The position numbers and the translations under genes were made by a program. Shown piece after piece: positions 4,391 to 63,282 of a DNA stretch of 64,000 nucleotides. How positions within the stretch are numbered: position 1 is the first letter of the stretch; every line of letters starts with the position of its first letter. Below the pieces are notes generated by a model. The model worked only from the letters and a program-made list of their open reading frames with translations, made no database searches and was not told where the DNA came from. The DNA comes from Armatimonadota bacterium (GTDB lineage: Bacteria > Armatimonadota > Hebobacteria > CAIYQO01), in assembly GCA_020060775.1 (NCBI GenBank), contig JAGUZN010000220.1, forward strand, positions 984 through 64,983, in the 5' to 3' direction.

Positions 4391-5605
4391 GTGTTCCCCG
4401 ATAGTGAACAAGGACCTGTTGAACGATTCCTTCGTTCGTTTCGCGACGGGATATCGTCGTCAGCCTTTGCATCTGGCTTTGTCAGGAACTTTTCTCTCGT
4501 CAACTTAAAGATTGAAAAGGTGCGAGTACCCTGGCTGGGGAAAGGGAGTCAGGCTCCTGCGCAAGCGTATAGAAAGGCGATAGATGATTACTTGGCATCC
4601 GCAGATTCGGTGCCAGATGCTGGGATCGTCATTCTCCTAGACGAACATGCCAAACTTCCCGATGCGGTAAACCCGTATCTACATGCTAAATCATCATTGC
4701 TCACGGCAGGTGTCCCGGTCCAGGAACTACGGGTGCCGACTATCAAGCAAGCTGACACATCGCTTTCCTATACCCTGCGTAACATCGCTCTCGCTCTGTA
4801 TGCAAAAATGGGGGGAACCCCATGGACAGTCGACCAGGATATGACGATCAGCGATGAACTGGTGATTGGCATGGGGAGCTGCGCACTCGCAGAGAGCCGT
4901 TTTATAGAGCGTGAAAGATATGTTGGCATCACTACCGTCTTTCGAGGAGATGGCAGCTACCTACTGGGGAACATCTCCAAAGAATGTCCGTACCGTGAAT
5001 ATCCGCAAGTTCTGGAGAGCGAAACTATATCTGTATTGAATGAAATCAAATATCGGAACGGTTGGCGTCCCGGTGATACCGTGCGGATCATATTTCACAC
5101 CTACAAACCATTAAAAAATATCGAGGTAGAAGCGATTGCTGCCAAGTGTGTGCAAGCTATCAGCGGTGAGCAGAATATCGAGTTTGCATTCCTCACGATT
5201 TCTCATGATCACCCTTTTAGACTTTTTGATATCGACCAGCAAGGTATCAAGGGTACGAAAGGCATCTATGTTCCCCAGAGGGGAATTATTATGCAGCTTG
5301 GACGATACACTAGGTTGCTTTGTACAACAGGACCAGAGTTAGTCAAACGTGAAGGATTGCCTTTGCCAGCACCTCTGCTTGTTCATCTGCATCCTGCATC
5401 AACCTACCGTTCATTAGATTACCTAGCTGAACAAGTATTGAAATTTACTGCGCTCTCGTGGCGTTCGACATTGCCTGCGCCGAAACCAGTAACAATCTTT
5501 TACTCTGACCTGATTGCGCAATTCCTGGGTCGCTTACAGCGTATTCCTGATTGGTCTCCGGCAACTCTAAACGCAAAATTACGTGCGAGTCGGTGGTTTC
5601 TATGA
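4391..5605 (+). CDS. Short prokaryotic Argonaute (MID-PIWI only), predicted catalytically inactive
   Basis: PIWI hallmark 'LYAKMGGTPW'. MID 5'-end-binding-like motif 'YLHAKSSLLTAGVPVQ...IKQ' (Y-K-Q-K spacing). RNase H catalytic positions replaced ('VIGMGS' instead of GxDV, 'IFHTYK' instead of RDG). Size of 404 aa is typical of short pAgos. Confidence 0.7.
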   Translation: MFPDSEQGPVERFLRSFRDGISSSAFASGFVRNFSLVNLKIEKVRVPWLGKGSQAPAQAYRKAIDDYLASADSVPDAGIVILLDEHAKLPDAVNPYLHAKSSLLTAGVPVQELRVPTIKQADTSLSYTLRNIALALYAKMGGTPWTVDQDMTISDELVIGMGSCALAESRFIERERYVGITTVFRGDGSYLLGNISKECPYREYPQVLESETISVLNEIKYRNGWRPGDTVRIIFHTYKPLKNIEVEAIAAKCVQAISGEQNIEFAFLTISHDHPFRLFDIDQQGIKGTKGIYVPQRGIIMQLGRYTRLLCTTGPELVKREGLPLPAPLLVHLHPASTYRSLDYLAEQVLKFTALSWRSTLPAPKPVTIFYSDLIAQFLGRLQRIPDWSPATLNAKLRASRWFL

Positions 5606-6843
5606 CGACGTATTTGTCAGGAGTATATGCTCAGCAACTTAGTACCCTAGCGACACATATCGCTGATGATGCAGTGTGGCCATCTCCGTACGCCGGGTTT
5701 CTTTACTATCTGTGTAACAAATACGATCAGCAGTTTCTGGCACCTTTGATTAACCCTTCACCGCCATGTGTTGAGCTCGGGCGGCTTTACGAGGCACCGA
5801 TTCTTGCATCAGCAGGATATTTATTCGCGCTTAACCATCCTGTAGTTCGTGCAAGTTCCGAAGCTTGGCATATTGGGTTTCAACGGCTTGCTGGGCGCGA
5901 TCCCTTCCCAATTGACCGCCAGTCATTCGTATATCGTCCAATAGAACTGCTTGGTATTACACTTGGAGTGAAGCACTGCCCTAATACTACGCAGGCAGAG
6001 ATTGATTGGCTTATAAATGTGCTACAGAGTGCTGAAAGCCGGCTGAAGAGTGCGTCCTGTTGGCAGTACCTGCTTGGTATGTATGCTTCACGACTACTGG
6101 GTAATTCCTGGGCAAAGCGTTCCTGGGATATTGGGCAATTCCCTGTGGATGACTTGAGCATCGTGGTATGGCTGTGCGCCAATACTCCTGATTTAGCGTT
6201 TGAATTCGGTGTAGACCAATTATACAAGCAAGCAGAGGAATCATTACTGACCCAGTGTGCAAAAACGGAGGTTACCATCCCAGATCCCGCACGTGCTGCA
6301 ATACTCTACTCTAGTCTTGACCGAGCTGTGAGCCGGAGTATTGAATCAGAGCACGAGCGCAATTGGCAAATAGGCCGTGATCAAGCCGATGCCCTCTCAA
6401 TCGTTATCACGTTATGCCGTAGATTTGATTTGTGTGTAAGGCAACTCCAACGTAGGCAGCGAAGTCGCAATCCTTTCACTGTACAAGATGAGTATGATGT
6501 CCAAGACCTGATGCATGCTTTGTTGAAGTTACACTTTGATGATGTTCGTCCCGAGGAGTGGACACCGTCATATGCTGGCAACGCATCACGCGTCGATTTT
6601 TTGCTTAAACGAGAGATGATCGTTGTTGAGGTAAAGATGACTCGCGATAGCCTAGCTCAACGTGAGCTAGCGGACCAATTAATTATTGATAAAGAGCGGT
6701 ATCGATCACATTCTGACTGCCGTATACTGGTGTGTTTTGTTTATGATCCGGAGCATCGCTGCACGAACCCGGCAGCATTGGAGAATGACCTCAGCGAGCA
6801 GATCGGTCTATTTAGGGTTGAAGCAATCGTCTCACCTGCGTAG
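5602..6843 (+). CDS. Protein with a C-terminal PD-(D/E)xK nuclease-like domain (restriction-endonuclease fold); candidate effector of the short pAgo operon
   Basis: ATG at 5602 overlaps the pAgo stop TGA (5603-5605), i.e. ATGA coupling. C-terminal motif 'DEYDVQD...SRVDFLLKREMIVVEVKMTRD' has D-x11-E-V-K spacing. The N-terminal ~300 aa are of unknown function. Confidence 0.5.
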   Translation: MTTYLSGVYAQQLSTLATHIADDAVWPSPYAGFLYYLCNKYDQQFLAPLINPSPPCVELGRLYEAPILASAGYLFALNHPVVRASSEAWHIGFQRLAGRDPFPIDRQSFVYRPIELLGITLGVKHCPNTTQAEIDWLINVLQSAESRLKSASCWQYLLGMYASRLLGNSWAKRSWDIGQFPVDDLSIVVWLCANTPDLAFEFGVDQLYKQAEESLLTQCAKTEVTIPDPARAAILYSSLDRAVSRSIESEHERNWQIGRDQADALSIVITLCRRFDLCVRQLQRRQRSRNPFTVQDEYDVQDLMHALLKLHFDDVRPEEWTPSYAGNASRVDFLLKREMIVVEVKMTRDSLAQRELADQLIIDKERYRSHSDCRILVCFVYDPEHRCTNPAALENDLSEQIGLFRVEAIVSPA

Positions 6844-7290: not shown

Positions 7291-8298
7291 TTACAGATCA
7301 AGCAATGATGCCGAATTCTCTTGAAACAACACCCCCATGCGGATATACCGCTGCACCATCACATTCGACCGATGACCGGTCTGCTGCATGATAGATCGCT
7401 CGTTTGCACCTGCACGGGCGGCGGCGGTGCAGTGGCCGGCGCGCAGGGAGTGACCGCTGTAGCGTTTCGGATCAAGGCCGATCTCTTTCACCATCTTCTT
7501 GATGAGATTGGCGACGGCACGATCCGATAAGCGCTCACTGCAGAGTTTGTCATGACGGTTGATGCCGCGGAAGAGGGCGCCGCCGGTAATCCCGCTGGAT
7601 TCCAGCCAGGATTTCAAGGCACGCACTGGACAGGTTTCTTCATGAGTGCCAAATGGTATGGCGACCCAACGCCCTTCACCTTCTTGATCTGTTTTTGATC
7701 GGCGGAGGCAGATAACGACTCCTTCCTCCCTGAAGGTCAGGTCGGCGACATCAAAGGCGACCAACTCGGAGCGCCGGAAGGCGCCAGCGTATCCCAGGAG
7801 TAGCAGTGCGCGGTCCCGCCGGCCTTTCAATGTCTCTGGTAATACCGCCATGATGCGTCTCATGTCATCGGTCATCAAGGCATCGACCTGGCGGGCGGTG
7901 ACGCCGATCCGCCGGCGAATGCCGCGCATGACGGCCCGCACGGCGGCGTGTTGGGTGGGGGAGGGGTGGCCAGCGTGTTGGTGGATGGCGCTGATGGCGG
8001 CCATATAGCGCGAGAGCGTGCTGTACTTGTGGTCGGTCGTCGCCATCGCCGTCATGTAGCAGGCAATCGTCTCAGGGCTGGCCGGCATCGACGGCAAGTG
8101 GTATTGTTCGCACCAGGCCACGAACTGCTGCCAATCCCGCTCGTAGGCCTCCCGCGTGTGTTGCGAGATACCTTCCTCGATGAACTCCTGGACTTGCTCG
8201 ATCAGTGGAACGAGAAGGGTGTGATCGGGGTGCTGGTTGGCACTGGGCCCGATCCGGGCAGGCAGTGATGCTGGCTGGGTGATGGGAGCCTGATCCAT
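7291..8298 (-). CDS. Tyrosine site-specific recombinase / phage-type integrase
   Basis: C-terminal catalytic region 'HSLRAGHCTAAARAG...TGHRS..MVQRYIR' (R..H..R..Y pattern). It sits at the GC-content transition at the right edge of the lower-GC island. Confidence 0.8.
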   Translation of the reverse strand: MDQAPITQPASLPARIGPSANQHPDHTLLVPLIEQVQEFIEEGISQHTREAYERDWQQFVAWCEQYHLPSMPASPETIACYMTAMATTDHKYSTLSRYMAAISAIHQHAGHPSPTQHAAVRAVMRGIRRRIGVTARQVDALMTDDMRRIMAVLPETLKGRRDRALLLLGYAGAFRRSELVAFDVADLTFREEGVVICLRRSKTDQEGEGRWVAIPFGTHEETCPVRALKSWLESSGITGGALFRGINRHDKLCSERLSDRAVANLIKKMVKEIGLDPKRYSGHSLRAGHCTAAARAGANERSIMQQTGHRSNVMVQRYIRMGVLFQENSASLLDL

Positions 8299-8561
8299 TA
8301 ACTGAGTCTTATCGGAAGCTAGAATAGCTTCGAGCTCAGAATAGAGTCAAGTCGCGCCAGTTCAATCCTAAATGTGTTCCCCCTCGGGCTGTCCCCAGCC
8401 GTCATCCTCTGCATTTTCTACCCGAAATGCCTCTAGGCGAGTACGTTTGGCTACACATTTTGCCCTGGAGGTGCCATGTGTTCACGACAGATCGGTTTCT
8501 AGCTTCCGTTAAGACTCAGATATGAGCTACAACGTGTCTGGTAACACCGGTAGGGGGCAGG

Positions 8562-16962: not shown

Positions 16963-18009
16963 ATGCGGCAGACACCCTTCACACAGGAACAATGGGCCGA
17001 CATCCTGCAGCGAGTGGTGGGATGGACCGATACCCGCGTGACAACGATTGACGTATTACGGGGGCAACACCCGCCGTATACGTGTCGGCTGTCGCTCGTC
17101 GGGAGTCAGGCACCATGTCCGATCATTGCCAAGGTCGCCGTTCCCTATGGCCCGCGACCGGCGGATGTGGAAGGCCTGCTCCATGCGTGGTTGCTCGCCG
17201 TAGGGGCGCCGTTGCCGCGGCTGTTGTGGCATGGCATGATTGCTAATGACATGGCGCTGGTGTTGCTCGACGATCTCGCCATAACGCACCGACTGCACAC
17301 CCACGAACACCTGTGGTCGCCGGACGAGATACGCGCCGTAATGTCGGCCACGGCGCAATTCCATGCCGCCGGGATGCGCTTGCCTCTTGCGCAGCTGCGC
17401 CACCGGCATCCCTGGCTCGTGCCGGCCTCCTCGATATGGAGCTCCTGGTTGCCGGATATTTGCGCGCGCGCATCACGGCCGCCGTTACGGGTCACCGACC
17501 CCCATTCCCTGGAAGCGTTGCAGCGGCTGCATGACTGGATGCAGCGGTATCGCACACCACTCACTGCATGGGAAACGATCATCCATGCGGACATCTTTTG
17601 GGGCAATGTGGCACTCTATGATACGGTTGATGGTGTGCAGGCCACCCTCCTCGATCTCGGTTCGGCATCGATTGGACTTCCTCAGTATGACGCCGTTTAT
17701 CTCAGGCTGCGTGGTGGTTTCCCCACTGATGCCGGCGATGACATCTGGCCACACAGTGATCGCTGGTATGAAGACGTGCTGCGTCCGCTGCTCCCAGCGC
17801 GACACACGGATGGGCCGTCCTGGGACGTGGCACAGGCTGTTGCCGAGGTGCAAATGAATCTGGAATGGCATGCCCATATTATCGCACTGCTCGATAAAGG
17901 CGATCAGGCCACCCTACAAGACCGGGATCTCCTCGCCAGGCAAGTGCGCGGCCCGTTATTCGGTGAGACATTCATACACCTGTGCCAGCGACTTTTTACA
18001 TTTGTATAA
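16963..18009 (+). CDS. Phosphotransferase enzyme family protein (aminoglycoside/choline kinase-like, APH fold)
   Basis: Brenner/catalytic-loop-like 'IIHADIFWGNVAL' and 'LLDLGSASIGLPQYD' (HxDxxxxN ... D motif). Confidence 0.55.
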   Translation: MRQTPFTQEQWADILQRVVGWTDTRVTTIDVLRGQHPPYTCRLSLVGSQAPCPIIAKVAVPYGPRPADVEGLLHAWLLAVGAPLPRLLWHGMIANDMALVLLDDLAITHRLHTHEHLWSPDEIRAVMSATAQFHAAGMRLPLAQLRHRHPWLVPASSIWSSWLPDICARASRPPLRVTDPHSLEALQRLHDWMQRYRTPLTAWETIIHADIFWGNVALYDTVDGVQATLLDLGSASIGLPQYDAVYLRLRGGFPTDAGDDIWPHSDRWYEDVLRPLLPARHTDGPSWDVAQAVAEVQMNLEWHAHIIALLDKGDQATLQDRDLLARQVRGPLFGETFIHLCQRLFTFV

Positions 18010-30301: not shown

Positions 30302-31093
30302 TTGCATATGAGAGTGTCAACTGCAAGTGAATATGTGCGCACACTCCTCCAACGTGGCCGCTATACCTTCAGCCGCGATGAAGCCGAAGCCGCGCTGGGG
30401 AGTCCGCGTGCGACGATGAAGGCGTTACACCGGCTCGAAAACCAGGGATGGCTGGTCTCACCGAGCCAGTGCTTCTACGTCATCCAGGACCCCCTGCATC
30501 AAGTTGCCGGGTTACCTGTCGAATGGTTCCTGGATGATTGGGCGCGACACCTCGGCGTGAAGTATTATGTCGGACTGCTCACCGCGGCGATGTATCATGG
30601 CGCCGCCCATCAAAAGCCGCAGCAGTTTCAGGTGATCGTCGACCGGCAACTCAGACCGGTGGTTCGCGGTCCGTATCATATTCACTTCTTTTATAAGAAG
30701 CGCATTGCTGATGCCGCCTGGGAGACGCGGCAGTCACCTGCCGGCTACTACCGGATCAGCACCCCGGAAATGACCGCCTACGATCTCCTGCGGTATCCGA
30801 AGGCGTGCCCGACCCGTGATATGGCGGCCACCATCCTTGCGGAACTCGGCGAGATGATCCTGGACGACCGTTTGGCAGATCTCCTGGAGCAGGAAGCAGA
30901 GATTGCCACCCTCCAACGGCTGGGGTGGATGCTGGATGCGGTCGGCTGGTCAGCGAAGACCGAGGCGTTGGCCAGTGCATTACACTCCCATCGTCGGCTC
31001 TGGCAACCCTTGCGGCCTGATCTTCCAGCCGATGGCCCTCGCGACCCACGCTGGCGCATCATCGTGAATGAAACGATTGAGGTTGAGATATGA
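30302..31093 (+). CDS. abiEi: AbiEi-family antitoxin / transcriptional regulator (type IV toxin-antitoxin)
   Basis: N-terminal wHTH-like region, ~260 aa, ATGA-coupled to a downstream AbiEii-type nucleotidyltransferase; family assignment rests on this pairing. Confidence 0.55.
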   Translation: MHMRVSTASEYVRTLLQRGRYTFSRDEAEAALGSPRATMKALHRLENQGWLVSPSQCFYVIQDPLHQVAGLPVEWFLDDWARHLGVKYYVGLLTAAMYHGAAHQKPQQFQVIVDRQLRPVVRGPYHIHFFYKKRIADAAWETRQSPAGYYRISTPEMTAYDLLRYPKACPTRDMAATILAELGEMILDDRLADLLEQEAEIATLQRLGWMLDAVGWSAKTEALASALHSHRRLWQPLRPDLPADGPRDPRWRIIVNETIEVEI

Positions 31094-31917
31094 TCCCCGA
31101 GGCATTTCTCGCCGAGTGGCGAGTCACCAGCGCACCATGGCAGCAACTGGCCATGGTCGAACAGGACCTGGTCATCAGCCGGGCACTCCTGAATATCTAC
31201 GACGATGACTACCTCCGGGACCGATTGGCCTTTCGTGGAGGGACCGCGCTCTACAAGCTCTACCTGGTGCCGCCGGCACGGTATTCCGAAGACATTGATC
31301 TGGTGCAAATCAACGCCGAGCCCATTCGCGAGACCGTCGTTCACCTGCAAGCGGCACTCGACCCCTGGCTGGGGCAGCCGCGGTATACCGCAACCGCACA
31401 ATCGGTCAAACTGCTCTATCGCTTCGCGGCAGAAGCGACGCCAGGTCTGCAGCAGCGCCTGAAGATCGAGATCAATACGCGGGAGCACCTTCCGGCATTT
31501 GGCTTGGTCAATAGACCGTTCACTGTGCAATCCCGATGGGTCGACGGCACGGTTATGATCCCCACTTATGCCATCGATGAACTACTGGGCACGAAGCTGC
31601 GCGCGCTCTATCAACGCAAGAAAGGCCGTGATCTCTTTGACGTGGATTATGCCATGCGGCAAGGGGAGGTCGATGGGCAACGGGTGCTCACAGCCTTCAT
31701 GCATTATGTGTCTCGGCAGGGATTGCGCATCACCACCGGGCAGTACCAGGCCAACCTGCGGGAGAAGATGACGGACCCCCGGTTCGGCGCCGACATTGCC
31801 CCACTGCTGCGTGATGGGATTGCCTTCTCACTCGATGAGGCATTAGCCCGAGTGGAGGAGCAGTTCCTGCGTCACCTTGACGCCGCCTGGTCACAGGTGG
31901 CGGAGCCTGTCCCGTAA
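31090..31917 (+). CDS. abiEii: AbiEii/AbiGii-family nucleotidyltransferase toxin
   Basis: 'AFRGGTALYKLY...RYSEDIDLV' NTase motif and 'LLGTKLRALYQRKKGRDLFD' characteristic of this family. Confidence 0.7.
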   Translation: MIPEAFLAEWRVTSAPWQQLAMVEQDLVISRALLNIYDDDYLRDRLAFRGGTALYKLYLVPPARYSEDIDLVQINAEPIRETVVHLQAALDPWLGQPRYTATAQSVKLLYRFAAEATPGLQQRLKIEINTREHLPAFGLVNRPFTVQSRWVDGTVMIPTYAIDELLGTKLRALYQRKKGRDLFDVDYAMRQGEVDGQRVLTAFMHYVSRQGLRITTGQYQANLREKMTDPRFGADIAPLLRDGIAFSLDEALARVEEQFLRHLDAAWSQVAEPVP

Positions 31918-33086: not shown

Positions 33087-33335
33087 TCACGGGCACTTGG
33101 GTAAGTGCGTAATCGGGTCGAATAGGACACGACCTTTCTTGCGTTGATACAAGGCGCGTAGTTTGCTCACAAGCAATTCTTCCAGTGAGAAGTTGATGAC
33201 GGAGACGTTATCCTGTACCCATCGCGAGTCGACGGCAAATGGTCTAGCAGCCTGTTGCACAACCACGGCCGATTTTCTGTCAACCGACAGAGCGCAAGCC
33301 GATGATTGCACTGAAATGGCTGTTAAGATGAACAT
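33087..33335 (-). pseudogene. Fragment of a second abiEii-like toxin gene
   Basis: Encodes 'EELLVSKLRALYQRKKGRVLFD', a near-identical match to 'DELLGTKLRALYQRKKGRDLFD' of the intact AbiEii at 31090-31917, but only ~80 codons and on the opposite strand. Confidence 0.5.
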
Positions 33336-33659
33336 CTCGGTTTGGTAAGGTTGGACCCTGTTACGTTATTGAGCTCGAATGCTTACCTGTAGACCAAGGG
33401 CACGTCCTTGCTCAACAGGCTGCTAGGCACCAGCACGGTCTGTTCAATATGCGCACGGGTAATCGTCCCCTTGGAGAAGTGACGGTATACCCATGCGCGC
33501 TTTTCATTCCCGCTCGGTCAGGTGAGTCACGGCGTCCAGCCGGCCCGGCACTATATGGGGGAGCCGAGCCTTATGGCTTATAATCGGTTGTGGACGTGGC
33601 AATGAGAATACGATCAGTACCGATACCACTATTTTGGGGGAAGGAAGGAATCCGCTGCT

Positions 33660-37932: not shown

Positions 37933-38321
37933 CCGTGGGCAATTCCATCATCGCCTGGGCAATATAGACACTTTTTTCTGAATTAGGTGACAGTATGGGC
38001 AAACTGAAGTGTTCTCAGGAGGCGCGTTTTTTCTTCCGGCATTTTGCCCGGCGTCGTCGCATCTCCTCATAATCGGGTAACGCGTATGCCGGTTCTTCCC
38101 CCTGTGCCCTGGCAGCTTTAGCGACTTGGCACCTGAGTACCCCACGTGCGAAGATATCGACGAGTTCCGCCAGGCGGGCCTCGGGGGTCATCTTGGTCGG
38201 GTCGATGGTGGTATTGAACATGGGACACACCCCTTTCATGAACGTATGACGGACAATACCTCAACATCGGCTGACATGGGAAGGGGATGGCGGAAGATTG
38301 TTTTTGAGGATAACGTAGGAT

Positions 38322-39686
38322 ATTTTTCGCACTTTCACCGAGGGGTTGCGGTGTAGCCCTTTCGCTGAGTAGAGTGTAAGCGCCAACTTACCATACTCAC
38401 GAAAGGGACTACACACGATGAACACTACGACAATCACTGGTGAGAGTCAAGCCCAAGCCGGGCTGGTGACGATCAATGAGGGGGAGCTGCGGGCGCATCT
38501 CGACCAGATCGTCACCGGCGCGGTGGAAGAGACGCTGAACCAATTGCTTGACGCGGAAGCGGAGGCGTTGTGCCAGGCGCGACGCTATGAGCGGACGGCG
38601 ACGCGGCAAGATACGCGGGCCGGGCATTACGCGCGTAAGCTCCAGACGCGGGCGGGCGAGGTGACGCTGAAGGTGCCGAAACTGCGGCAGCTGACCTTTG
38701 AGACGGCGATCATCGAGCGCTACCAGCGCCGGGAAGCCTCGGTGGAAGAGGCGCTGATCGAGATGTACCTCGCCGGGGTGAGCGTCCGGCGGGTGGAAGA
38801 CATCACCGAGGCGCTGTGGGGCACGAAGGTGAGCGCCTCGACGGTGAGTGACTTGAATCAGAAGCTCTACCTGCGCCTGGACGACTGGTTGGCCCGTCCG
38901 TTGACCGGGGACTTTGCCTACGTCTATCTGGACGGGCTCTGGCTGAAGAAGAGTTGGGGCGGCGAGGTGCAGACGGTCTCGGTGCTGGTGGCGGTGGGGG
39001 TGAGCGCCGACGGCTACCGGGAGATCCTGGGAGTCGCCGAAGGCATGAAGGAGGATACCGCAAGTTGGCGGGACTTCCTGCGGGGGATGAGGGCGCGGGG
39101 ATTGCAGGGTATCCGGCTGGTGGTCTCCGATTGCTGCCTGGGGCTGGTGGAGGCGCTGGGCGAGGTCTTCCCCGAGGCTGCTTGGCAGCGGTGCGTGGTG
39201 CACTTCTACCGCAATGTGCTGGGACAGGTGCCGCGGGGTAAGAGCCGGGAGGTGGCGACGATGCTGAAGGCGATTCATGCCCAGGAGGATCGCACGGCTG
39301 CCCTGCAGAAAGCAGAGGATGTCGCCGGGAAACTCCGGGGGCTGAAGCTGGAGAAGGCGGCCAAGGTGCTCCAAGCGGGCATCGCCGATACGCTGGCGTA
39401 CTATGCCTTCCCGAGTGAGCACTGGCGGAGTCTGCGTACGAATAATCCGTTGGAACGACTGAATCGAGAGATCCGTCGGCGGACCCGCGTGGTGGGCTGT
39501 TTCCCCGATGGCCGCTCGGCGGTGATGCTGGTGACCGCGCGCCTGCGGTATCTGGCCAGTAAAGACTGGGGGACCAAGCGGTATTTGAACATGCAACGCC
39601 TCTGGGACGCGGCGCCTTCCGGGGAGGAGGGCGCGTAGCGCGGAGGACAATCAGGCGCTCATACTCTACAAAAAGTGCGAAAAACT
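38322..39686 (+). mobile_element. IS256-family insertion sequence (about 1.36 kb) with imperfect terminal inverted repeats
   Basis: Left end 'TTTTTCGCACTTT' (38324-38336) versus right end 'AAAGTGCGAAAAAC' (39673-39686), inner 'GAGTAGAGTGTAAGCGCC' / 'GGCGCTCATACTCTAC'; contains an intact mutator-type transposase. Confidence 0.65.
38418..39638 (+). CDS. IS256-family (mutator-type) transposase
   Basis: 406 aa; 'IEMYLAGVSVRRVEDITEALWG...YVYLDGLWLK...REVFPEAAWQRCVVHFYRNVL' is characteristic of Transposase_mut. Confidence 0.85.
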   Translation: MNTTTITGESQAQAGLVTINEGELRAHLDQIVTGAVEETLNQLLDAEAEALCQARRYERTATRQDTRAGHYARKLQTRAGEVTLKVPKLRQLTFETAIIERYQRREASVEEALIEMYLAGVSVRRVEDITEALWGTKVSASTVSDLNQKLYLRLDDWLARPLTGDFAYVYLDGLWLKKSWGGEVQTVSVLVAVGVSADGYREILGVAEGMKEDTASWRDFLRGMRARGLQGIRLVVSDCCLGLVEALGEVFPEAAWQRCVVHFYRNVLGQVPRGKSREVATMLKAIHAQEDRTAALQKAEDVAGKLRGLKLEKAAKVLQAGIADTLAYYAFPSEHWRSLRTNNPLERLNREIRRRTRVVGCFPDGRSAVMLVTARLRYLASKDWGTKRYLNMQRLWDAAPSGEEGA

Positions 39687-39916
39687 CTGGACACTACCTT
39701 TTTGAGGTGGTTTTCGCTGGTCGTGGGGGAGGGGGGAACGGAAATATAACCGAGAGAGGAACATGGCAAAGAACATGTACGGTAAACCCGGAACTGACCG
39801 CCAAAAGAGGAACAATTTTATACTCAGCGGCTTGATGTGTTAATCGGCGTTTCGGGGTTAGGCCCCTGCGGAGCCACACCCCTTTCGCCAGCCAACTGCT
39901 TATAGCATTAGGTTAA

Positions 39917-41679: not shown

Positions 41680-41790
41680 GTAATACGGTGACACGTAATA
41701 CGGTGACAGGTTAGTAATACTGTGACAGGTTATGTATTTCGCGTAATACGGTGACAGGTTATGTATTTCGCAATAATAGCTAACCTGTCA
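41680..41790. repeat. Iteron-like array: four tandem direct copies of GTAATAC(G/T)GTGACAGGTTA (two extended by TGTATTTCGC) plus one inverted copy (TAACCTGTCA)
   Basis: Read directly: ...GTAATACGGTGACACGTAATACGGTGACAGGTTAGTAATACTGTGACAGGTTATGTATTTCGCGTAATACGGTGACAGGTTATGTATTTCGCAATAATAGCTAACCTGTCA. Confidence 0.65.
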
Positions 41791-41907
41791 TCGTATTCTA
41801 TGGCGACGCGAATTATGTAAGTTCTCGACCTTTAATGTTATGGTATGCCTCGACGATATAGAGATGATGGTTGACATGAGAGAAGAGAAAAGCGTATATC
41901 TTCTTGT

Positions 41908-42699: not shown

Positions 42700-42762
42700 T
42701 GCGTTGTGGCATCCAGCGGGTTGTCACTGACACCGCGTCCTGACTATAACCGGAGGGTAGCT

Positions 42763-43404
42763 ATGCCGAACGTTGTCATTTTTGGAGCGAATGGGCTGAC
42801 TGGCCAGCAGCTCATCACACAGATGCTGGCCAAGGGGTGGAGCGTCACGGGAGCCGTACGTCGGCCGGAAACGCTGGAAGCCTTTGGCTCGCAGATTACT
42901 GTCAAGCAGATCGCTTTTAATAACGATGACAGTATTCGGAGTGCCGTCTCCGGACAGGATGTCGTCGTTTCTGCACTTGGATCTGGAGGACTCCGCGAGT
43001 CAGCGCGACCCACCAATCTATATAGCACGTCGATCAAAGCAATCACCAACGCCATGCTGGAGCAACGTATCTCTCGCGTGTATACGATCTCTTCCGGGGG
43101 CGTCGAGTATGATGCGGGTGCCCCCTGGTACTTCCGAGCTTTGCTTAGGCCGTACTTGATTAACAACTACCTCGACATGATGAAGATGGAGACGATCCTC
43201 GAAGAATCCCCATCGCTGATCGAGTGGACTATTGTCCGTCCAACTTATCTGCTGGATGGCCCGTCCAGACAGTATCTGGTGAGCGACCGGACACTTGGTA
43301 CAGGGTCATTCAAAATTCACCGGGTGGACGTGGCAGCCTTTATTATCCAGGATATCGAACGCGGGGAATGGATCCGTAAGCATCCCGTGCTTGGATACCC
43401 GTGA
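42763..43404 (+). CDS. NAD(P)-binding Rossmann protein (NmrA/atypical SDR-like)
   Basis: 'MPNVVIFGANGLTGQQLITQMLAKGWSVTGAVRRPE' GxxGxxG at the N-terminus; ATG preceded by GGAGGG. Confidence 0.55.
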   Translation: MPNVVIFGANGLTGQQLITQMLAKGWSVTGAVRRPETLEAFGSQITVKQIAFNNDDSIRSAVSGQDVVVSALGSGGLRESARPTNLYSTSIKAITNAMLEQRISRVYTISSGGVEYDAGAPWYFRALLRPYLINNYLDMMKMETILEESPSLIEWTIVRPTYLLDGPSRQYLVSDRTLGTGSFKIHRVDVAAFIIQDIERGEWIRKHPVLGYP

Positions 43405-43608
43405 TCTTCATTGGGAAATGCTTGCATCAGCGAGTGGCTGTGACAGCGGATGGTCGGAGCGTTTTCGCATGCATGCTCGATTAGGACCCTGATACCGTTG
43501 CCGCCAAGCGAGAGACCCTATTCTCTACAATCTGAATACTGATCAGGTTAACTGCCGACGCGGGCAAGGTGTGGAACGATGGTGGTTTTAGGTGACCCCA
43601 GTGTCCTA

Positions 43609-43788
43609 AAAACTGTTTTGAAAGTCTCTATCCGGTCTCGCTTGATCTTTTCGCGGCGGTCCCTGCCGGGCCTCCTCACCCTATCGGCCCTGGATAGTAC
43701 CTCGTCGTCCCGGCAGGGACCGCCGCGAACATCTACGGCGCGATCCGCGAACAGATCCTTTCAAAACAATTTCTAAGATATGCGAGAA
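43609..43788. repeat. Copy 1 of a ~175-nt nested-hairpin intergenic repeat element (MITE-like or structured ncRNA)
   Basis: Matches 62202-62375 at ~80% identity with compensatory substitutions in the inner stem (GCGGTCCCTGCCGGG/CCCGGCAGGGACCGC versus CCAGTCCGTATCGGG/CCCGATACGGACGG) and a conserved loop CTCCTCACCCTATCGG. Confidence 0.6.
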
Positions 43789-44151: not shown

Positions 44152-44484
44152 ATGCCAGGTGGAGATGGAACAGGCCCAGCGGGAGTGGGCCCGATGACGG
44201 GGCGAGGAGCCGGCTACTGCGCCGGCGCCGGTGTTGCGGGAAGCGCATCGCTGATCCCCGGTCGCGGACGCGGCATGGGGCTTGGCCGGGGTTTCGGTCG
44301 TGGCGTGTGTCGCGGTCTCGGATGGATTGGCGTCCTTGCGGCCGGCGGCTTGCTCGCTCGCACATTGTTCGGTTCGGCATCGAGAGCCGATGAAAAGGCC
44401 CTGTTGACCGAACAGGCCAGGAATATGGAAGGCGCGCTCGCCAATATCAAGCAGCGCCTGAGTGAACTTGACAAAGACGAGTGA
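44152..44484 (+). CDS. DUF5320-like small glycine/arginine-rich protein with C-terminal coiled coil
   Basis: 'MPGGDGTGPAGVGPMTGRGAGYC...GRGRGMGLGRGFGRG...EKALLTEQARNMEGALANIKQRLSEL' matches the DUF5320 architecture; AGGAG RBS. Confidence 0.5.
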   Translation: MPGGDGTGPAGVGPMTGRGAGYCAGAGVAGSASLIPGRGRGMGLGRGFGRGVCRGLGWIGVLAAGGLLARTLFGSASRADEKALLTEQARNMEGALANIKQRLSELDKDE

Positions 44485-44526
44485 TCCCCGTGCTGCCTGA
44501 CCGGCAGTTCTGGCTGGTCAGGCAGC

Positions 44527-45393
44527 GTGACACCAGGAGTGCCAGTTATGCGCATCGCCATCGCCAGCGGGAAAGGCGGCACCGGAAAGACCACGGTGGC
44601 CGTCAATCTTGCGCGCATCCTCTGCCGCCGGGAGGCGGTGCAATACGTGGATTGCGATGTCGAGGAACCTAATGGTCATCTTTTCCTCACGCCGTCGATC
44701 ACGCAGACGGCACCGGTGACGATCCCTGTCCCCGACGTGCGCGACGATCGCTGTACGCATTGTGGGGCGTGCAGTCAACTCTGCCAGTATCATGCCATCG
44801 CCGTGCTCAATCACATGACGCTGGTGTTCCCGGAGCTCTGTCACGGCTGCGGCGGGTGCGCCCGCGTCTGCCCGGAGCAGGCCATCAGCGAGGTGGGGCG
44901 TCCCATCGGGGTTGTCGAACGTGGGATGGCCGGCAGCGTGGCGTTTGTGCACGGGCGGCTGAATGTGGGCGAAGCGATGAGCCCGCCGCTGATACGGGCG
45001 GTGCAGGCGTTGGCGGACCCACAGGCGACCGTCATTCTCGATGCGCCGCCGGGTACCTCCTGTCCGGTCATCGCCGCGATTCGCCCGAGCGACGCGGTGG
45101 TGCTGGTCACCGAGCCGACCGCCTTCGGTCTGCATGACCTGACGCTGGCGGTGGAGATGGTGCGCGTGCTCTCTCGTCCCATGGGTGTGGTGCTCAACCG
45201 CGCGGATATGGGTGATGACCGTGTCGAGCAGTTTTGCGCGCGGGAAGGCATTCCCATTTGGGGGCGCATTCCGCATGACCGGCGGATTGCCGAGGCCTAC
45301 TCGCGAGGGGAGATCGCCGTTGATGTCCTTCCGGACACCATACCCTTTTTTGCGGCCGTTATCGATGCCATCCGAAGTGAGGTGCCGGCATGA
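44527..45393 (+). CDS. MinD/ParA-superfamily P-loop ATPase with inserted 2x[4Fe-4S] ferredoxin domain (COG1149-like)
   Basis: Deviant Walker A 'ASGKGGTGKTTVA'; 'CTHCGACSQLCQYHAI' and 'CHGCGGCARVCPEQAI' cluster motifs. Confidence 0.7.
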   Translation: MTPGVPVMRIAIASGKGGTGKTTVAVNLARILCRREAVQYVDCDVEEPNGHLFLTPSITQTAPVTIPVPDVRDDRCTHCGACSQLCQYHAIAVLNHMTLVFPELCHGCGGCARVCPEQAISEVGRPIGVVERGMAGSVAFVHGRLNVGEAMSPPLIRAVQALADPQATVILDAPPGTSCPVIAAIRPSDAVVLVTEPTAFGLHDLTLAVEMVRVLSRPMGVVLNRADMGDDRVEQFCAREGIPIWGRIPHDRRIAEAYSRGEIAVDVLPDTIPFFAAVIDAIRSEVPA

Positions 45394-46298
45394 GAGAGAT
45401 TGTGATCATCAGCGGCAAGGGGGGCACGGGGAAAACGAGCGTGACGGCAGCCTTTGCCAGTATAGCCCCACGTGCTGTGCTGGTGGACTGCGATGTCGAT
45501 GCCGCCGACCTGCACCTCATTCTCACCCCCACCGTGCAGGAGACGCATGAATTTTATGGCGGCAACACCGCACGCATCGCACAGGAGCGTTGCCGGCGGT
45601 GCGGGATATGCGTTGACGTGTGCCGCTTCGGCGCGGTCTTCACTGACTCTCGTGAGACTGACGATGATCGAGCTGCGGTGTACGCGATCGATCCGATCGC
45701 CTGTGAGGGGTGCGGTGTCTGTGCACATCTGTGTCCCCATCAGGCCATTGCCTTTACCGAGGCCCTCAACGGCCACTGGTTCCACTCTGACACCCGCATG
45801 GGCCCCATGGTGCATGCGCGGCTGGGCGTGGCGGAAGAGAACTCGGGAAAGCTGGTGACGCTCATTCGGCGTGAAGCGCGCGCCCTGGCCGAGGCCCAGG
45901 GGCATGATCTGATCCTGGTGGACGGCCCGCCGGGCATCGGGTGTCCGGTGATCGCTTCACTGTCAGGCGCCGATCACGTGGTGATTGTGACCGAGCCGAC
46001 GGTTTCCGGCAGTCACGATATGGCACGCGTGGTCTCGCTGGCTGCACACTTCAACGTGCCGGCCAGCGTCATCATCAATAAAGCGGATCTCAATCGGGAT
46101 AAAGCCGCGGAGATTGTGCACTATGCACTGGCGCACCGGATCGGCGTACTGGGTGAGATTCCGTATGATTCGGTGATCACGCGCGCGCAACTCGCCGGCC
46201 TCAGTGTGATCGAGTATGGCGATAATCCGGCGAGTGATGCATTGCGCACGATCTGGAGCCGGCTGCAGCAGCATATGGCAACAGAATGTGTTCGATGA
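45390..46298 (+). CDS. Second MinD/ParA-superfamily ATPase with inserted 4Fe-4S ferredoxin domain (paralog of the upstream gene)
   Basis: 'ISGKGGTGKTSVTAA'; 'CRRCGICVDVCRFGAV' and 'CEGCGVCAHLCPHQAI'; ATGA-coupled to the upstream gene. Confidence 0.7.
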   Translation: MREIVIISGKGGTGKTSVTAAFASIAPRAVLVDCDVDAADLHLILTPTVQETHEFYGGNTARIAQERCRRCGICVDVCRFGAVFTDSRETDDDRAAVYAIDPIACEGCGVCAHLCPHQAIAFTEALNGHWFHSDTRMGPMVHARLGVAEENSGKLVTLIRREARALAEAQGHDLILVDGPPGIGCPVIASLSGADHVVIVTEPTVSGSHDMARVVSLAAHFNVPASVIINKADLNRDKAAEIVHYALAHRIGVLGEIPYDSVITRAQLAGLSVIEYGDNPASDALRTIWSRLQQHMATECVR

Positions 46299-58631: not shown

Positions 58632-61600
58632 ATGTTTCTCAAACGATTAGAGTTGTACGGATTCAAAACCTTTGCCGACCGCACCGAGCTGGAACTGGGT
58701 CCCGGCATCACGGCGATCGTGGGCCCCAATGGCTCAGGCAAAAGCAATATCAGCGATGCCATCCTCTGGGTGCTCGGCGAGCAAAGCACCAAAGCCCTGC
58801 GCAGCGCGCGGTCGACCGATGTCATCTTCAAGGGGTCGGAGTCGCGCAAGGCGCTGGGCATGGCCGAGGTCAACCTCACGCTCGACAACGAGCACGGCGA
58901 TCTCCCCATCGATTATAACGAGGTCACCGTCACCCGCTGCGTCTTCCGCTCCGGCGAGTCCGAGTACCTGATCAACCGCACCCCGGTGCGCCTGCGCGAT
59001 GTCCATGAACTGTTTATGGACACCGGCATCGGCAAGCACTCGTATTCCATCATCAGCCAGGGTGAAGTGGATGCCGTGCTTTCTTCGCGCTCGGAAGACC
59101 GTCGCGCGCTCTTTGAAGAGGTGGCGGGCATCACGAAGTACAAGCACCGCAAAAAGGAAGCCCTGCGCAAGCTCGAGCAAACACAGCAGAACCTGTTGCG
59201 CGTGAGCGATATCATCAACGAACTGGAATCACAGCTCGAGCCCATGGCCGCGCAATCGGAAAAAGCCAGGCAGTATCAGGTGCTCAACGCCGAACTCACC
59301 GACCTCCACCTTTCGCTGGTCGTCGCACAGTACCAGGGGTTGCAGGGCAGCCTGGCGCGTTCGCGCGAACGGGAAGCCGAACTGCACCAGGAACTCGAGC
59401 AGTTGCGCCATACCCTGCAGCAGGCTGAAGTGAAAGAGACGACCTTGCGCGCCGCGTTGCAGCAACTCGAGGACGAGTTGGAGGAACGGCGCGGCGTGGA
59501 GAATCGCCTGGCGGCAGCCGTGCAGGGCACGGAGAGCAAGCTTGCGTTGCTCAAACAACAGGAAGATGTCGCGCGTAAAGAGTGTGAACGCATTGAGCGC
59601 GAACGCGGCGAGGGCGAGCAACAGGCCGAAGCGCTGCAGTGCGAAATTGACACCGCCGAGCAGGAGCAGGCGCGTTTGCAGGAGATCATCGCCGGCCTCG
59701 AGGGGGAAATCGCCGCGGCGGATGATACGCTGAAAGAGGCCACTGCCGCGGTGGAAGCGGTCGCGCAACAACTCCATGAGCGGCGCGGCGCTTACCTCGA
59801 CGCCCTTGACCAGGTGGCGAAAGTGCGCAATGAACTGGCGCGCCTGGATTCGATGCTGAAAACCTCAGACGGGCGTTTGACGCGCATTGCCGAGGAACGT
59901 CGTGAAGTCGACGGCAAACTCGCTGCCCGGCGAGCAGAGAAGCAGACCGCCGATGCCCGCGTCCACGCGTGTAAAACCGCGCGCGAGTCCCTCATCGCCA
60001 GGCGTAATGAAGTGAATGCTGCCCGCCAGGCTGCCGTGGAACAGCAGGCAGAAGCGCGACAGCAGGAACATCGCCTGCGCGAAGGATTGGCCGGCTTGCG
60101 CGAGCGCCAGCGCACCCTGCAGGAATTGGAAGATTCGCTGGAAGGTTACTTTCCCGGCGTACGCGCGGTGATGGCGGCCGCACAGTCGGGCACGTTGGCC
60201 GGCTGGTATGCGCCGGTTACCGAATTGATCAATGTGCCCGCCGAGCTGGAGACGGCCGCGGAAGTCGCGCTCGGCGCGAATTTACAAGACGTGGTGACCG
60301 ATGGCGAGCAATCCGCGAAAGCGGCGATTTCCCTGCTGAAGCGCGCCAACGCGGGGCGCGCGACGTTCCTGCCGATGGATCTGATCTCCCCCGCTCCCCG
60401 GGCGACCGTGCCGGACATGGATGGCGTACTCGGTCTGTTCATGGATTTAGTGGGCTACGACCACCAGCATGAGCGCGTGGTGCAGCATATTATGGGGCGC
60501 GTGATCGTCGCGCGTGATCTGGATGCCGCGCTCGCCGCCGCCAAATCGCCGCACGCCAGCGGGTGGAATCGCATCGTCACGCTGGAAGGCGAGGTTGTCC
60601 ATCCCTCGCGCGCCATGACCGGTGGTTCGAAGGGACGGGGCAGCGGGCTGCTCACGCGCAAACGCGAACTGCAGGAACTCACCGAGCAACTGGAGACGCT
60701 GGAGCGCAAAGCGCAACAGGCGCACACGCGATATCAGGAGATTACCGCCGAGCTGCAGCGCCTGGAGGGCGAGGTGGTCCGCGTTGCCAAGCAGAGCGAA
60801 CAGGCGGCAGCGCAGCAAGCGGAGGCCGAACGCGCGGTGGCGACCGTGCAGCGCGACGTGCAGGCGCTGGATGAACGCCTCGGCGCTCTCGATGAAGAGA
60901 CCGCGTGGATCACGCGGGAGGTGGAGGAAACCCGCGCCGACCATCAGCGCTTGCTCGAGTCGCTGGCCGAAACCGAGGGACGCCAACGCGAGGCCGAGCA
61001 GGCCATTGCCGAGGCGGAGGGGACACTGGCGGCAGAACAGCGCGAGCGCGATACGGTGACCGAGCGGTTTGCCGCGCTGCGCTTAACACTGACCGAAGTG
61101 CGCGGACAGTGGCAAACCCAGCAGGCGGCAGCACGTCGGGCATCGGAGCAACGCGAAGCCCTGCACCAGCGGCTGCAGCAGCATGACAGCACGACCGCGC
61201 GGTTAGCCGAGGAGATCGCCCAACTGTGCGCGAAGCACACCGACGCCGCGGCTGAACTCGAGCGCCAGCGCGCTGCCCTGCAGAAAAGCGGGACGGATCT
61301 GGAGGGGGCGCGGGGACGGCGCACCGCCATGCTCGAGGCCATCGCCGCCAGCCTGGAAGCGCAGAAGGCCCTGCGCGAACAGGTGGAGGGCTGCCAGGAC
61401 CGCGTGCACCGCACGGATTTGCGCACCACGCAGATCGAGACGGAGCTCGGCTTCCTGGAGACGCAGTTCTTCGAGGATTACCGCCTCACCACCGAACAGG
61501 CGATTGTCCGCGCGAAACCGGTGGAACACCGCGGCGTGGCCATCGCCCGCATGAAGGAATTGCAGGCCGCCGTCGATGAGTTGGGCACCGTCAATTTGGG

Positions 61601-62204
61601 GGCCATCGAGGAGTACGACCGCATCTGCGAGCGCTTATCCTTTCTCACCGCCCAGCGCACTGATCTGGAAGAAGGGCGCGCCAGCCTGCTGAAGGTGATT
61701 GTCGAGATCGACACGACGTGCAAGGAAAAATTCCTCGAGGCCTTTGCCGCGATCGCCCGCGAGTTTCAGGACCTGTTTGCGCAACTCTTCGGCGGCGGCA
61801 CGACGCAACTCACCCTGGAAGACCCGGCGAACGTGTTGGAGAGCGGCATCGAGATTCATGTCACCATCCCGGGAAAGCGCAATCAGCATCTCCTGCAGCT
61901 CTCCGGGGGGGAGCGGGCGCTCACTGCGCTGGCGTTGCTGTTTGCCATGTTGCGCGTGAAGCCCAGCCCCTTCGTGGTGCTCGACGAGATCGACGCGCCT
62001 CTCGACGAAGCCAATGTCGGGCGCTATTGCGATGTACTGCTCGGCTTCACCGACCGCACCCAGTTCCTGGTGGTGACCCACAACAAGGGCACCATGGAGG
62101 CTGCCGACGTCCTGTACGGCGTCACCATGGAAAAGGCCGGGGTGTCCAAGATCATCGGCGTCCGCCTGTCCGACGGCCAGCAGACCCTGCCCGTCACTGC
62201 CTAA
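58632..62204 (+). CDS. smc: Chromosome segregation protein SMC
   Basis: N-terminal Walker A 'IVGPNGSGKSNISDAILWVLGEQS'; long coiled coils; hinge; C-terminal 'LSGGERALTALALLFA...FVVLDEIDAPLDEANV' signature and Walker B. Confidence 0.9.
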   Translation: MFLKRLELYGFKTFADRTELELGPGITAIVGPNGSGKSNISDAILWVLGEQSTKALRSARSTDVIFKGSESRKALGMAEVNLTLDNEHGDLPIDYNEVTVTRCVFRSGESEYLINRTPVRLRDVHELFMDTGIGKHSYSIISQGEVDAVLSSRSEDRRALFEEVAGITKYKHRKKEALRKLEQTQQNLLRVSDIINELESQLEPMAAQSEKARQYQVLNAELTDLHLSLVVAQYQGLQGSLARSREREAELHQELEQLRHTLQQAEVKETTLRAALQQLEDELEERRGVENRLAAAVQGTESKLALLKQQEDVARKECERIERERGEGEQQAEALQCEIDTAEQEQARLQEIIAGLEGEIAAADDTLKEATAAVEAVAQQLHERRGAYLDALDQVAKVRNELARLDSMLKTSDGRLTRIAEERREVDGKLAARRAEKQTADARVHACKTARESLIARRNEVNAARQAAVEQQAEARQQEHRLREGLAGLRERQRTLQELEDSLEGYFPGVRAVMAAAQSGTLAGWYAPVTELINVPAELETAAEVALGANLQDVVTDGEQSAKAAISLLKRANAGRATFLPMDLISPAPRATVPDMDGVLGLFMDLVGYDHQHERVVQHIMGRVIVARDLDAALAAAKSPHASGWNRIVTLEGEVVHPSRAMTGGSKGRGSGLLTRKRELQELTEQLETLERKAQQAHTRYQEITAELQRLEGEVVRVAKQSEQAAAQQAEAERAVATVQRDVQALDERLGALDEETAWITREVEETRADHQRLLESLAETEGRQREAEQAIAEAEGTLAAEQRERDTVTERFAALRLTLTEVRGQWQTQQAAARRASEQREALHQRLQQHDSTTARLAEEIAQLCAKHTDAAAELERQRAALQKSGTDLEGARGRRTAMLEAIAASLEAQKALREQVEGCQDRVHRTDLRTTQIETELGFLETQFFEDYRLTTEQAIVRAKPVEHRGVAIARMKELQAAVDELGTVNLGAIEEYDRICERLSFLTAQRTDLEEGRASLLKVIVEIDTTCKEKFLEAFAAIAREFQDLFAQLFGGGTTQLTLEDPANVLESGIEIHVTIPGKRNQHLLQLSGGERALTALALLFAMLRVKPSPFVVLDEIDAPLDEANVGRYCDVLLGFTDRTQFLVVTHNKGTMEAADVLYGVTMEKAGVSKIIGVRLSDGQQTLPVTA

Positions 62205-62375
62205 GAAACTGTTATGAACGTCTCTGTCCGGTCTCGCGTGATCTGTTCGCGCCAGTCCGTATCGGGACTCCTCACCCTATCGGTCTTGGAGAGTACCTCG
62301 GCGTCCCGATACGGACGGCTACGAACATCCACGGCGCGATCCGCGAACAGATCCTTTCACAACAATTTCTAACAC
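62202..62375. repeat. Copy 2 of the ~175-nt nested-hairpin repeat element, immediately after the smc stop
   Basis: See copy 1 (43609-43788); identical outer arms (...GATCTGTTCGCG.../...CGCGAACAGATCCTTTCA.AACAATTTCTAA) and co-varying inner stem. Confidence 0.6.
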
Positions 62376-62427
62376 AGAGGCGCCGCTCAACGCGACGCCT
62401 CAGAATCATTCCGCCTGCCGCAGCGCC

Positions 62428-63282
62428 CTATACCCGCGCGCCAGCCACCCGCTCGTAGAGCGCCATGAAGCGCCGCCCGTACTCGAGGTAGCTGTCGAAG
62501 AGCAACTGCTCGCGCTCCTCGCCACCGATGTCGCCGGTATGCACCACTGCAGCGATATGCGGTTCGATCGAATACCCGCCGTCATAGCCGTGCTCGAGCA
62601 GGATGCGCACCGAGTCCTCTACGCGGCAACTGCCCTCGCCCGGGTAGGTGAAGATCGGCTTGTGGTCCTCACTCATGTAACCGTCCTTGATGTGGACATG
62701 CACGACGTGATCGATTACTTTACGCAGGTAGTCCTGGGCATCCTGTTGGTGGATGAAGGTATTTCCGGTATCGAACACCAGCTTCAGCGCCGGGCTGTCC
62801 ACCCGCTCCAGCAGTTCCAGCGTGTTCTCCGGCGATTCGCCACCCCAGCCGGTGCAGTTTTCGTGCAGCAGGGTGATGCCGCCATCTTCCGCCATTGTCG
62901 CCAGTTCGCGAATGCGGCGCACCGCTTCATCGCGCCAGGCCTCATCGGACAAGCCATCGTTCTCGAACGACATGATGCGGATGAATGACGTGCCGCTGCG
63001 CTGCATGCGCGGGATCGCCTGGCGCAACTCGTTGACATCCCGTGCGAAATCACCGCTGATCTTGCGGCTCCAGTTCGCCAGCGCTGAGGCAAAGCAGCAG
63101 ATGGTCATCCCGGCTTCCTCGATGGCCTCGAGCGCACGGTCGAAGGTGGCGTCATCGACCAGTGTCGCATTCGTGCCTTCGATCAAACGCAGTTCCAGTT
63201 GTTGCCAGCCCAGTGCCTTGTGCGCGGCGATTTGCTGCGCGACTTTACCGCCGGCTTCATCGGAAATCCCAGTGAAATACAT
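62428..63282 (-). CDS. Sugar phosphate isomerase/epimerase (xylose isomerase-like TIM barrel)
   Basis: Family-typical blocks 'GWQQLELR', 'ITLLHENCTGWGG', 'VHVHIKDG'. Confidence 0.6.
   Translation of the reverse strand: MYFTGISDEAGGKVAQQIAAHKALGWQQLELRLIEGTNATLVDDATFDRALEAIEEAGMTICCFASALANWSRKISGDFARDVNELRQAIPRMQRSGTSFIRIMSFENDGLSDEAWRDEAVRRIRELATMAEDGGITLLHENCTGWGGESPENTLELLERVDSPALKLVFDTGNTFIHQQDAQDYLRKVIDHVVHVHIKDGYMSEDHKPIFTYPGEGSCRVEDSVRILLEHGYDGGYSIEPHIAAVVHTGDIGGEEREQLLFDSYLEYGRRFMALYERVAGARV

Follow-up and report, generated by a model that had tools for sequence, protein, structure and literature searches.

Dispersed ~165-nt palindromic repeats in an Armatimonadota genome are probably a non-autonomous DNA transposon (MITE)

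Bacterial MITEs lie in intergenic DNA, often just past genes, and form long hairpins once they are transcribed (PMC3184786). The Correia/NEMIS elements of Neisseria, the RUP elements of Streptococcus pneumoniae and the ERIC/IRU elements of enterobacteria are all non-coding and shorter than 200 bp, with terminal inverted repeats and short AT-rich duplications (PMC3184786). As far as it is described in the same review, the bcr1 element of the Bacillus cereus group is a dispersed and transcribed sequence of ~155 bp that is flanked by short direct repeats of 5 bp, occurs in many copies and strains, has measured transcripts, and keeps a long double-stranded structure through compensatory changes (PMC3184786, citing Klevan 2007 and Kristoffersen 2011). 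REPINs and REP sequences, which are mobilised by RAYT proteins, are dispersed extragenic palindromes whose hairpins are also kept by paired changes. REPINs consist of two short REP units, are linked to a RAYT gene and make no target duplication. Among the transposases of the DDE type, those of the IS5 group produce a 4-bp YTAR duplication, those of the IS1031 and ISL2 groups and of the eukaryotic PIF/Harbinger elements produce TNA or TAA/TTA, and those of IS630 produce TA.

Here we describe a repeat that occurs twice in 64,000 nt of a contig from an Armatimonadota bacterium (hereafter the window). We consider it probable that the two repeats are copies of a ~165-nt non-autonomous DNA transposon (MITE). 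The properties by which bacterial MITEs are defined, i.e. a hairpin unit with terminal inverted repeats that reach its ends, AT-rich direct flanks, a lack of coding content and dispersed, diverged copies, are all found in this element (PMC3184786). It resembles Correia/NEMIS, RUP and ERIC/IRU in these respects and in its location, but has no sequence similarity to any of them, and its flanks are CTAA or TAA rather than TA. Moreover, only three copies are known, as opposed to tens to hundreds in other bacterial MITEs, and its host is an uncultured Armatimonadota lineage. With bcr1, as portrayed in that review, it shares size, short direct-repeat flanks and compensatory changes, whereas the many copies and the measured transcripts of bcr1 stand against three copies known from sequence. 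The target preference of the IS5 family matches the CTAA/TTAG or TAA flanks of the element; the likeness is one of flanks only. The element has no transposase gene, and its terminal sequence begins with GAAAYTGTT. Dispersal and paired changes also recall REPINs, although the twin REP units, the RAYT gene and the insertion without target duplication were not seen here.

The two copies, A and B, align throughout with an offset of 18596 nt and no gap, and 43599-43776 and 62195-62372 are 84% identical. A blastn comparison gave 86% identity over 172 nt (E 8e-54), which bears out the sequence-only reading that a repeat of ~175 nt is present twice in 64 kb; every sequence string quoted in that reading was found in the copies. 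In the pairwise alignment homology ended sharply at both edges. Flanks included, copy A occupies 43606-43776 on the + strand (CTAA at 43606-43609, body at 43610-43772, CTAA at 43773-43776), so that it does not extend to 43788, where its end had been placed before. Copy B occupies 62201-62372 on the + strand (CTAA at 62201-62204, body at 62205-62368, CTAA at 62369-62372). At its left end copy B has one extra G relative to copy A. The left junctions therefore differ by one base, and the duplication can be read as 4 bp (CTAA) or as 3 bp (TAA; 43607-43609 and 43774-43776 on the + strand in copy A). The body of the element measures 163-165 nt and has no recognisable coding content; the sole open reading frame that runs through it encodes 52-65 aa in an Arg/Ser-rich frame. 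A third copy was absent from the 64-kb window according to sensitive blastn (7-nt words), nhmmer and an unfiltered covariance-model search.

Each copy forms one long, imperfect palindrome, in which two arms, ~66 and ~70 nt in length, enclose an asymmetric centre of ~34 nt (CTCCTCACCCTATCGG...GTACCTCG). In both copies the two arms are ~80% complementary to each other over their full length, and the right arm contains a short internal duplication, with CCGCGAACA present twice. Inverted symmetry starts at the first base of homology, and the extreme ends read GAAAYTGTTNTGAAAG. The left end reads (G)AAACTGTTTTGAAAG, and reverse-complementing the right end gives AAATTGTTTTGAAAG; in copy A the two agree at 14 of 15 positions. 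The left terminal inverted repeat of copy A (AAACTGTTTTGAAAGTCTCTATCCG; 43610-43634, + strand) pairs with the right one (CGAACAGATCCTTTCAAAACAATTT; 43748-43772, + strand), which lies within the stretch that is most conserved between the copies; a run of 29 nt that is identical in A and B covers this region. An inverted-repeat search returned the terminal arms of copy A as 31-nt arms with 77% complementarity.

Further inward, the 5' arm of the inner stem of copy A (43650-43670, + strand) is hypervariable and holds the compensated changes described below. It is complementary to the 3' arm (43709-43729, + strand) at all 21 positions. The corresponding arms of copy B (62244-62271 and 62300-62327, both + strand) pair with each other except for one bulged A. 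Hence, the perfect inner-stem complementarity that had been claimed for both copies holds in copy A, but in copy B it amounts to 82% over 28 nt when aligned without gaps, with the single bulge appearing in the fold. Between the inner arms of copy A lies a central unpaired region (CTCCTCACCCTATCGGCCCTGGATAGTACCTCGTCG; 43671-43708, + strand) that contains a 5-bp sub-hairpin, CTATC/GATAG. The predicted RNA folds were very stable on the + strand (-83.4 kcal/mol in copy A and -75.0 kcal/mol in copy B) as well as on the - strand (-98.8 and -92.8 kcal/mol), and folding the + strand as DNA gave -47.3 and -42.5 kcal/mol, respectively. Fold z-scores ranged from -7 to -11 for RNA or DNA, and none of 200 shuffled sequences was equally stable. 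The nested hairpin proposed from the sequence is thus confirmed, in the form of one long hairpin per copy.

Direct repeats of CTAA (or TAA) are present at all four junctions, exactly where inverted symmetry ends. The tetranucleotide CTAA/TTAG has a frequency of only 1.7 per kb in the window. As the four flanks of A and B are all identical, a target duplication is not strictly separable from the element's own sequence. The duplicated unit corresponds exactly to the hairpin, with homology ending at the hairpin base.

The genomic contexts of the two copies have nothing in common. Copy B is located between two convergent genes, smc (58632-62204, + strand; 1190 aa) and a gene for a xylose-isomerase-like TIM barrel (62428-63282, - strand) whose end lies 55 nt past the copy. 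The TAA stop codon of smc (62202-62204) lies in the left CTAA of copy B, so that the smc reading frame is left intact. Copy A abuts no stop codon: it is situated ~200 nt past 42706-43404, the gene of an NAD(P)H-binding protein, and a DUF5320 gene lies downstream of it. Accordingly, the claim that each copy directly follows a gene stop is right for copy B, but not for copy A, where the nearest convincing open reading frame ends at 43404. Directly downstream of copy A, a trio of genes (44152-46298, + strand) encodes the DUF5320 protein and then two P-loop proteins of the MinD/ParA type, which contain 4Fe-4S ferredoxin inserts. The two copies are separated by core chromosome, smc among its genes, and the gene order of a C39 peptidase gene and smc is common to relatives. 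The copies therefore mark neither a segmental duplication nor the boundary of an island; attL and attR sites of an island were rejected as an explanation, because the copies are only 84% identical and core chromosome including smc lies between them. The SMC protein has one database entry with 100% identity, and the next entries are from named Armatimonadota MAGs with at most 69% identity, which implies that this is a lineage sampled once.

Copies A and B differ in 25 of 170 alignment columns (numbered as the position minus 43606). These differences are unevenly spread, with 12 in the 38 columns of the inner stem, 4 in the 37 columns of the central region and 9 in the 98 columns of the outer arms. 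Variability in the inner stem is roughly threefold that of the remaining columns (12/38 vs 13/132; Fisher P = 0.003). In contrast, the centre did not differ from the outer arms (4/37 vs 9/98; P = 0.75). The loop, previously described as conserved, is therefore no more conserved than the outer arms, and it is the inner stem that stands out, as variable.

Three pairs of the inner stem have changed on both sides while pairing was kept, namely 57/110 (C-G to G-C), 59/108 (G-C to A-T) and 60/107 (C-G to T-A). Reading the - strand adds a fourth such pair, located in the outer stem, which has changed from U-A to G-U. We simulated 25 random substitutions on the structure of either copy, and obtained equally many compensated pairs by chance with P = 0.011-0.014 for the + strand and ~0.001 for the - strand. 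The compensatory changes that had been noticed in the inner stem are thus borne out, and the compensation between A and B is genuine, with a statistical weight that is moderate with two sequences. In A and B, five G-U pairs occur on the - strand and one on the + strand.

The compensated changes are clustered on both arms of the inner stem, where CTGC has become GTAT opposite a change from GCAG to ATAC. Template switching within a quasipalindrome, in which one arm is copied from the other, yields multi-base, mirror-symmetric clusters of seemingly compensatory changes in a single event that needs no selection (PMC8794818, PMC7202029). Because template switching gives the same pattern as covariation, compensation alone does not establish selection on an RNA. 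The argument from covariation to selection on RNA structure is consequently weaker than it had seemed, given the few copies and the fit of the clustered changes to template switching. Simple neutral decay of a MITE, however, does not predict the excess variability of the inner stem. This excess is our main reason for keeping alive, at a low probability, the view that the structure is under selection.

A third copy was found through its translation. Only one frame, on the + strand, is open through both copies, and we searched a profile of the two aligned 55-aa peptides against 1.84 billion representative proteins. The single match was P0241, a protein of 217 aa (E 4e-19) that aligned with all 55 profile positions. 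It stems from one other NCBI contig of 10,785 nt, has no Pfam domain and is rich in Arg. Most likely, P0241 is a spurious open reading frame that was called across another copy of the element.

Since this copy is known as a translation, we read its bases only where the genetic code fixes them. Compared with A and B, its terminal repeats show two further double changes in which pairing is kept, 14/156 (G-C to Y-G) and 16/154 (A-T to C-G). Again the changes in the outer arms are clustered, from TGAAA to TYACN opposite a change from TTTCA to TGTGA. The inner stem of the third copy is a mixture of A-like and B-like states, and its pair 57/110 is G-Y and still pairs. Pair 34/133 is a determined G-T, i.e. 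a wobble pair on the + strand and a mismatch on the - strand, which is opposite to the bias in A and B. These opposite wobble biases imply that no single transcribed strand is indicated. One point against a MITE is that the element is preceded in this copy by a Val codon (GTN) instead of TAA; only under favourable codons are the flanks readable as approximately (G)TAG and TTAG. The known dispersed copies thus comprise two in DNA, 18.6 kb apart in unrelated contexts, and one in translated form on another contig.

Other searches for further copies gave no additional member. A 20-mer from the conserved right arm had four matches in species-representative genomes, all of them chance matches of 20-25 nt in unrelated phyla. 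With an 18-mer, a pattern that proved too short, all of the at least 120 matches listed among metagenome contigs (including L071 and L076) were chance matches in coding DNA. Scans of viral contigs and blastn against plasmids and phages revealed no copy. A concatenated six-frame peptide query against an index of 5.8 billion proteins returned nothing, but this search was unreliable as it should have caught P0241. No copy was detected by blastn, nhmmer or a covariance model in ~96 kb from relatives, which comprised smc neighbourhoods (at most 69% identity) and contigs that encode an IS256 transposase with 92% identity. Most of what the covariance model picks up is generic hairpins. In the smc neighbourhood of the nearest relative (69% SMC identity), which is not alignable as DNA, the element is absent.

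We also searched for known RNA and regulatory signals. Rfam gave no match in the whole window at the gathering thresholds, and at an E-value threshold it gave only noise, with miRNA precursors, VA RNA and snoRNA at 13-21 bits and thus well short of the gathering scores. Neither copy was associated with a sigma-70-type promoter or an intrinsic terminator; the one site that resembles a terminator (62380-62393) is beyond the element, beside the downstream gene. These searches gave no support to the proposal of a structured small RNA or of a hairpin functioning as a terminator. The suggestion that CCUCC in the loop acts as an anti-Shine-Dalgarno sequence likewise found no support. A small open reading frame driven by GGAGG in the - strand loop was rejected, as no start codon follows the GGAGG.

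Several alternatives to a MITE were weighed against these data. The repeat could be a structured non-coding RNA present in several copies, be it an sRNA or an element that acts in cis within 3' UTRs, with selection for RNA folding as the main cause of the conserved architecture, whether or not the sequence was once a MITE. Such an RNA would account for the excess of pairing-preserving changes over chance on both strands, and for a loop and outer arms that are conserved while the inner stem varies with its pairing kept. The G-U pairs of A and B, mostly on the - strand, and the 15-18 kcal/mol greater stability of that strand would fit as well, and copy B, between convergent genes, could be included in either transcript. 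This explanation nevertheless leaves the terminal direct CTAA repeats unexplained. Homology that stops at the hairpin base leaves no common upstream or downstream control region, the contexts of A and B are unrelated, and neither Rfam nor the promoter and terminator searches gave a signal. Furthermore, the G-T pair at 34/133 in the third copy favours the opposite strand, and the clustered, multi-base and mirror-symmetric changes are as expected from template switching without selection (PMC8794818). We therefore regard a structured RNA as unlikely, albeit worth keeping in view. It is rather unlikely, too, that the hairpin itself is what is selected, be it as a structured RNA or as a single-stranded DNA intermediate, with an inner stem that changes only by compensation and a centre and outer arms that are constrained in sequence. 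If so, the element would be a domesticated or structure-dependent mobile RNA/DNA module in a phylum that has hardly been sampled. It might stabilise 3' ends, serve as a target of RNase III or be a transposition substrate that is recognised by its hairpin and still duplicates its targets.

A single-stranded DNA route would also be offered by a Y1/HUH transposase, with the palindrome moved either as a REPIN by a RAYT or as a palindrome-associated derivative of IS200/IS605. The hairpin would then be the recognition structure, which directly explains the preserved pairing; single strands of the whole element are indeed predicted to fold as DNA into a stable hairpin (-47 and -42 kcal/mol; z -9 and -7), and compensated changes maintain both its inner and its outer stem. 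Stem-loops with compensatory changes are known from REP and IS605-type elements (PMC3184786, PMC2775950). Those elements, however, have neither a target duplication nor inverted repeats that span the unit, whereas here the inverted ends are bounded by direct CTAA. REP units are ~20-40 nt long and usually very numerous, as opposed to a single palindrome of ~165 nt in two copies per 64 kb, and Pfam scans of the open reading frames in the window contained no Y1 transposase gene. Altogether, we consider mobilisation by a Y1/HUH enzyme improbable. Far less probable still is an integron attC-like site, or another target of a site-specific recombinase after a cassette open reading frame. It is brought to mind by the imperfect palindrome directly after a stop codon in copy B, by an inner stem whose structure is better conserved than its sequence, and by a tyrosine recombinase gene in the window (7291-8298). 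Sites of the attC type read 5' RYYYAAC ... GTTRRRY 3', usually measure 57-141 nt and occur in cassette arrays that adjoin intI. In our element the order of the motifs is reversed on either strand, the 5' arm containing GTT and the 3' arm AAC, and its ~165-170 nt exceed the usual length. There is no cassette array, and the recombinase gene is 35 kb away; copy B is preceded by the housekeeping gene smc rather than by a cassette, while copy A follows no open reading frame. A retron, an IS110 bridge RNA and an omega-RNA were rejected as candidates, as no partner gene adjoins either copy.

The two options that the sequence-only reading had left side by side, a functional RNA and a MITE-like element, thus fared differently: the MITE fits the anatomy and is the better option, whereas the inference of a functional RNA was not supported. 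For the MITE we propose the following course of events. The CTAA or TAA flanks would be target-site duplications left by a DDE transposase with a preference for YTAR or TAA as target, supplied in trans from a gene elsewhere in the genome. Such AT-rich targets would be rare in a genome with 57% GC, and this would direct landings to stop codons and intergenic DNA. Copy B would have inserted exactly on the TAA of smc, with the duplication regenerating the stop codon. Template switching in the quasipalindrome would be the most economical way to maintain the complementarity of the arms, possibly in combination with selection for the hairpin. Read-through transcripts of neighbouring genes would gain a 3' stem-loop (-75 to -99 kcal/mol), which might hinder exonucleases or attract RNase III; we regard any such effect on neighbouring transcripts as a by-product.

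Judged by the flanks only, the parent would be a DDE transposase of the IS5/Harbinger type and, less well, of IS630. A parent transposase with matching ends was not found in the window, and Pfam scans of its large open reading frames showed no transposase of the IS5, IS630 or Y1 type. The only insertion sequence of the window is an intact member of the IS256 family (38310-39699) with a Mutator-type transposase (38418-39638; E 1e-114) and a 9-bp direct repeat, TTTTTGAGG, at both ends. It was rejected as the parent, as its ends and its 9-bp duplication are unlike those of the repeat. Transposases of the IS256 family with 91-94% identity to it are present on short contigs of other metagenomes, including 'bacterium ADurb.Bin429'.

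A comparable structure was seen in an Armatimonadota relative with 68% SMC identity (L128; JGI 3300031463, Ga0272448_1000520). At 17228-17384 of that locus lies a nested palindrome of ~150 nt that contains four copies of GGGGACAGTCCCC and is bordered on both sides by direct TTAG, the reverse complement of CTAA. Its architecture is the same as that of our element and its sequence is unrelated; one copy was seen.

The window holds several other features of mobile or defence character. A region at 3315-6843 (+ strand) encodes a short prokaryotic Argonaute (4391-5605; 404 aa) with a Piwi domain (E 4e-17). Its neighbours are a 357-aa open reading frame without Pfam match and a 430-aa protein with a C-terminal endonuclease domain of the DpnII/MboI type (E 2e-51). 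Together these genes resemble a defence module in which a short pAgo is paired with a nuclease. Both copies of the repeat carry three GATC sites at conserved arm positions (43645-43757 in copy A and 62241-62353 in copy B), and the DpnII/MboI domain encoded in the same window is of the GATC type. The tyrosine recombinase gene mentioned above (phage integrase family; - strand) adjoins a pair of 26-nt inverted repeats (8299-8522; TAACTGAGTCTTATCGGAAGCTAGAA and TTCTAGCTTCCGTTAAGACTCAGATA) that are 92% complementary and 172 nt apart; they may represent either a site of recombination or one end of a mobile element. At 30302-31917 (+ strand) we found genes for an AbiEi antitoxin and an AbiEii nucleotidyltransferase toxin, a type IV toxin-antitoxin or abortive-infection module. 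Inverted repeats of 24 nt that begin with CTAGCAGCCTGTTG and are 135 nt apart (33244-33426) occupy intergenic DNA upstream of a gene at 33660; this is possibly a second small palindromic element, with one copy in the window. Finally, an AT-rich cluster at 41695-41797 (GC ~0.37), upstream of a methyltransferase gene, contains AATACGGTGACAGGTTA three times in direct and once in inverted orientation, and looks like an operator or an iteron array.

These results have consequences beyond the locus itself. Gene callers may create spurious open reading frames over elements of this kind, as P0241 exemplifies. Compensatory-looking changes in DNA palindromes are predicted alike by template switching and by selection on RNA, and hairpin covariation in a palindromic repeat should therefore not count as proof of an RNA gene. 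Most likely, the repeat is a new example of a familiar type of element rather than a new type of RNA gene. If this assignment is correct, it would be a previously undescribed family of MITEs from an uncultured lineage of Armatimonadota, of which the nearest relative sampled reaches only 69% identity in SMC, and copy B would provide a small case of an element that landed on a TAA stop codon and regenerated the stop.
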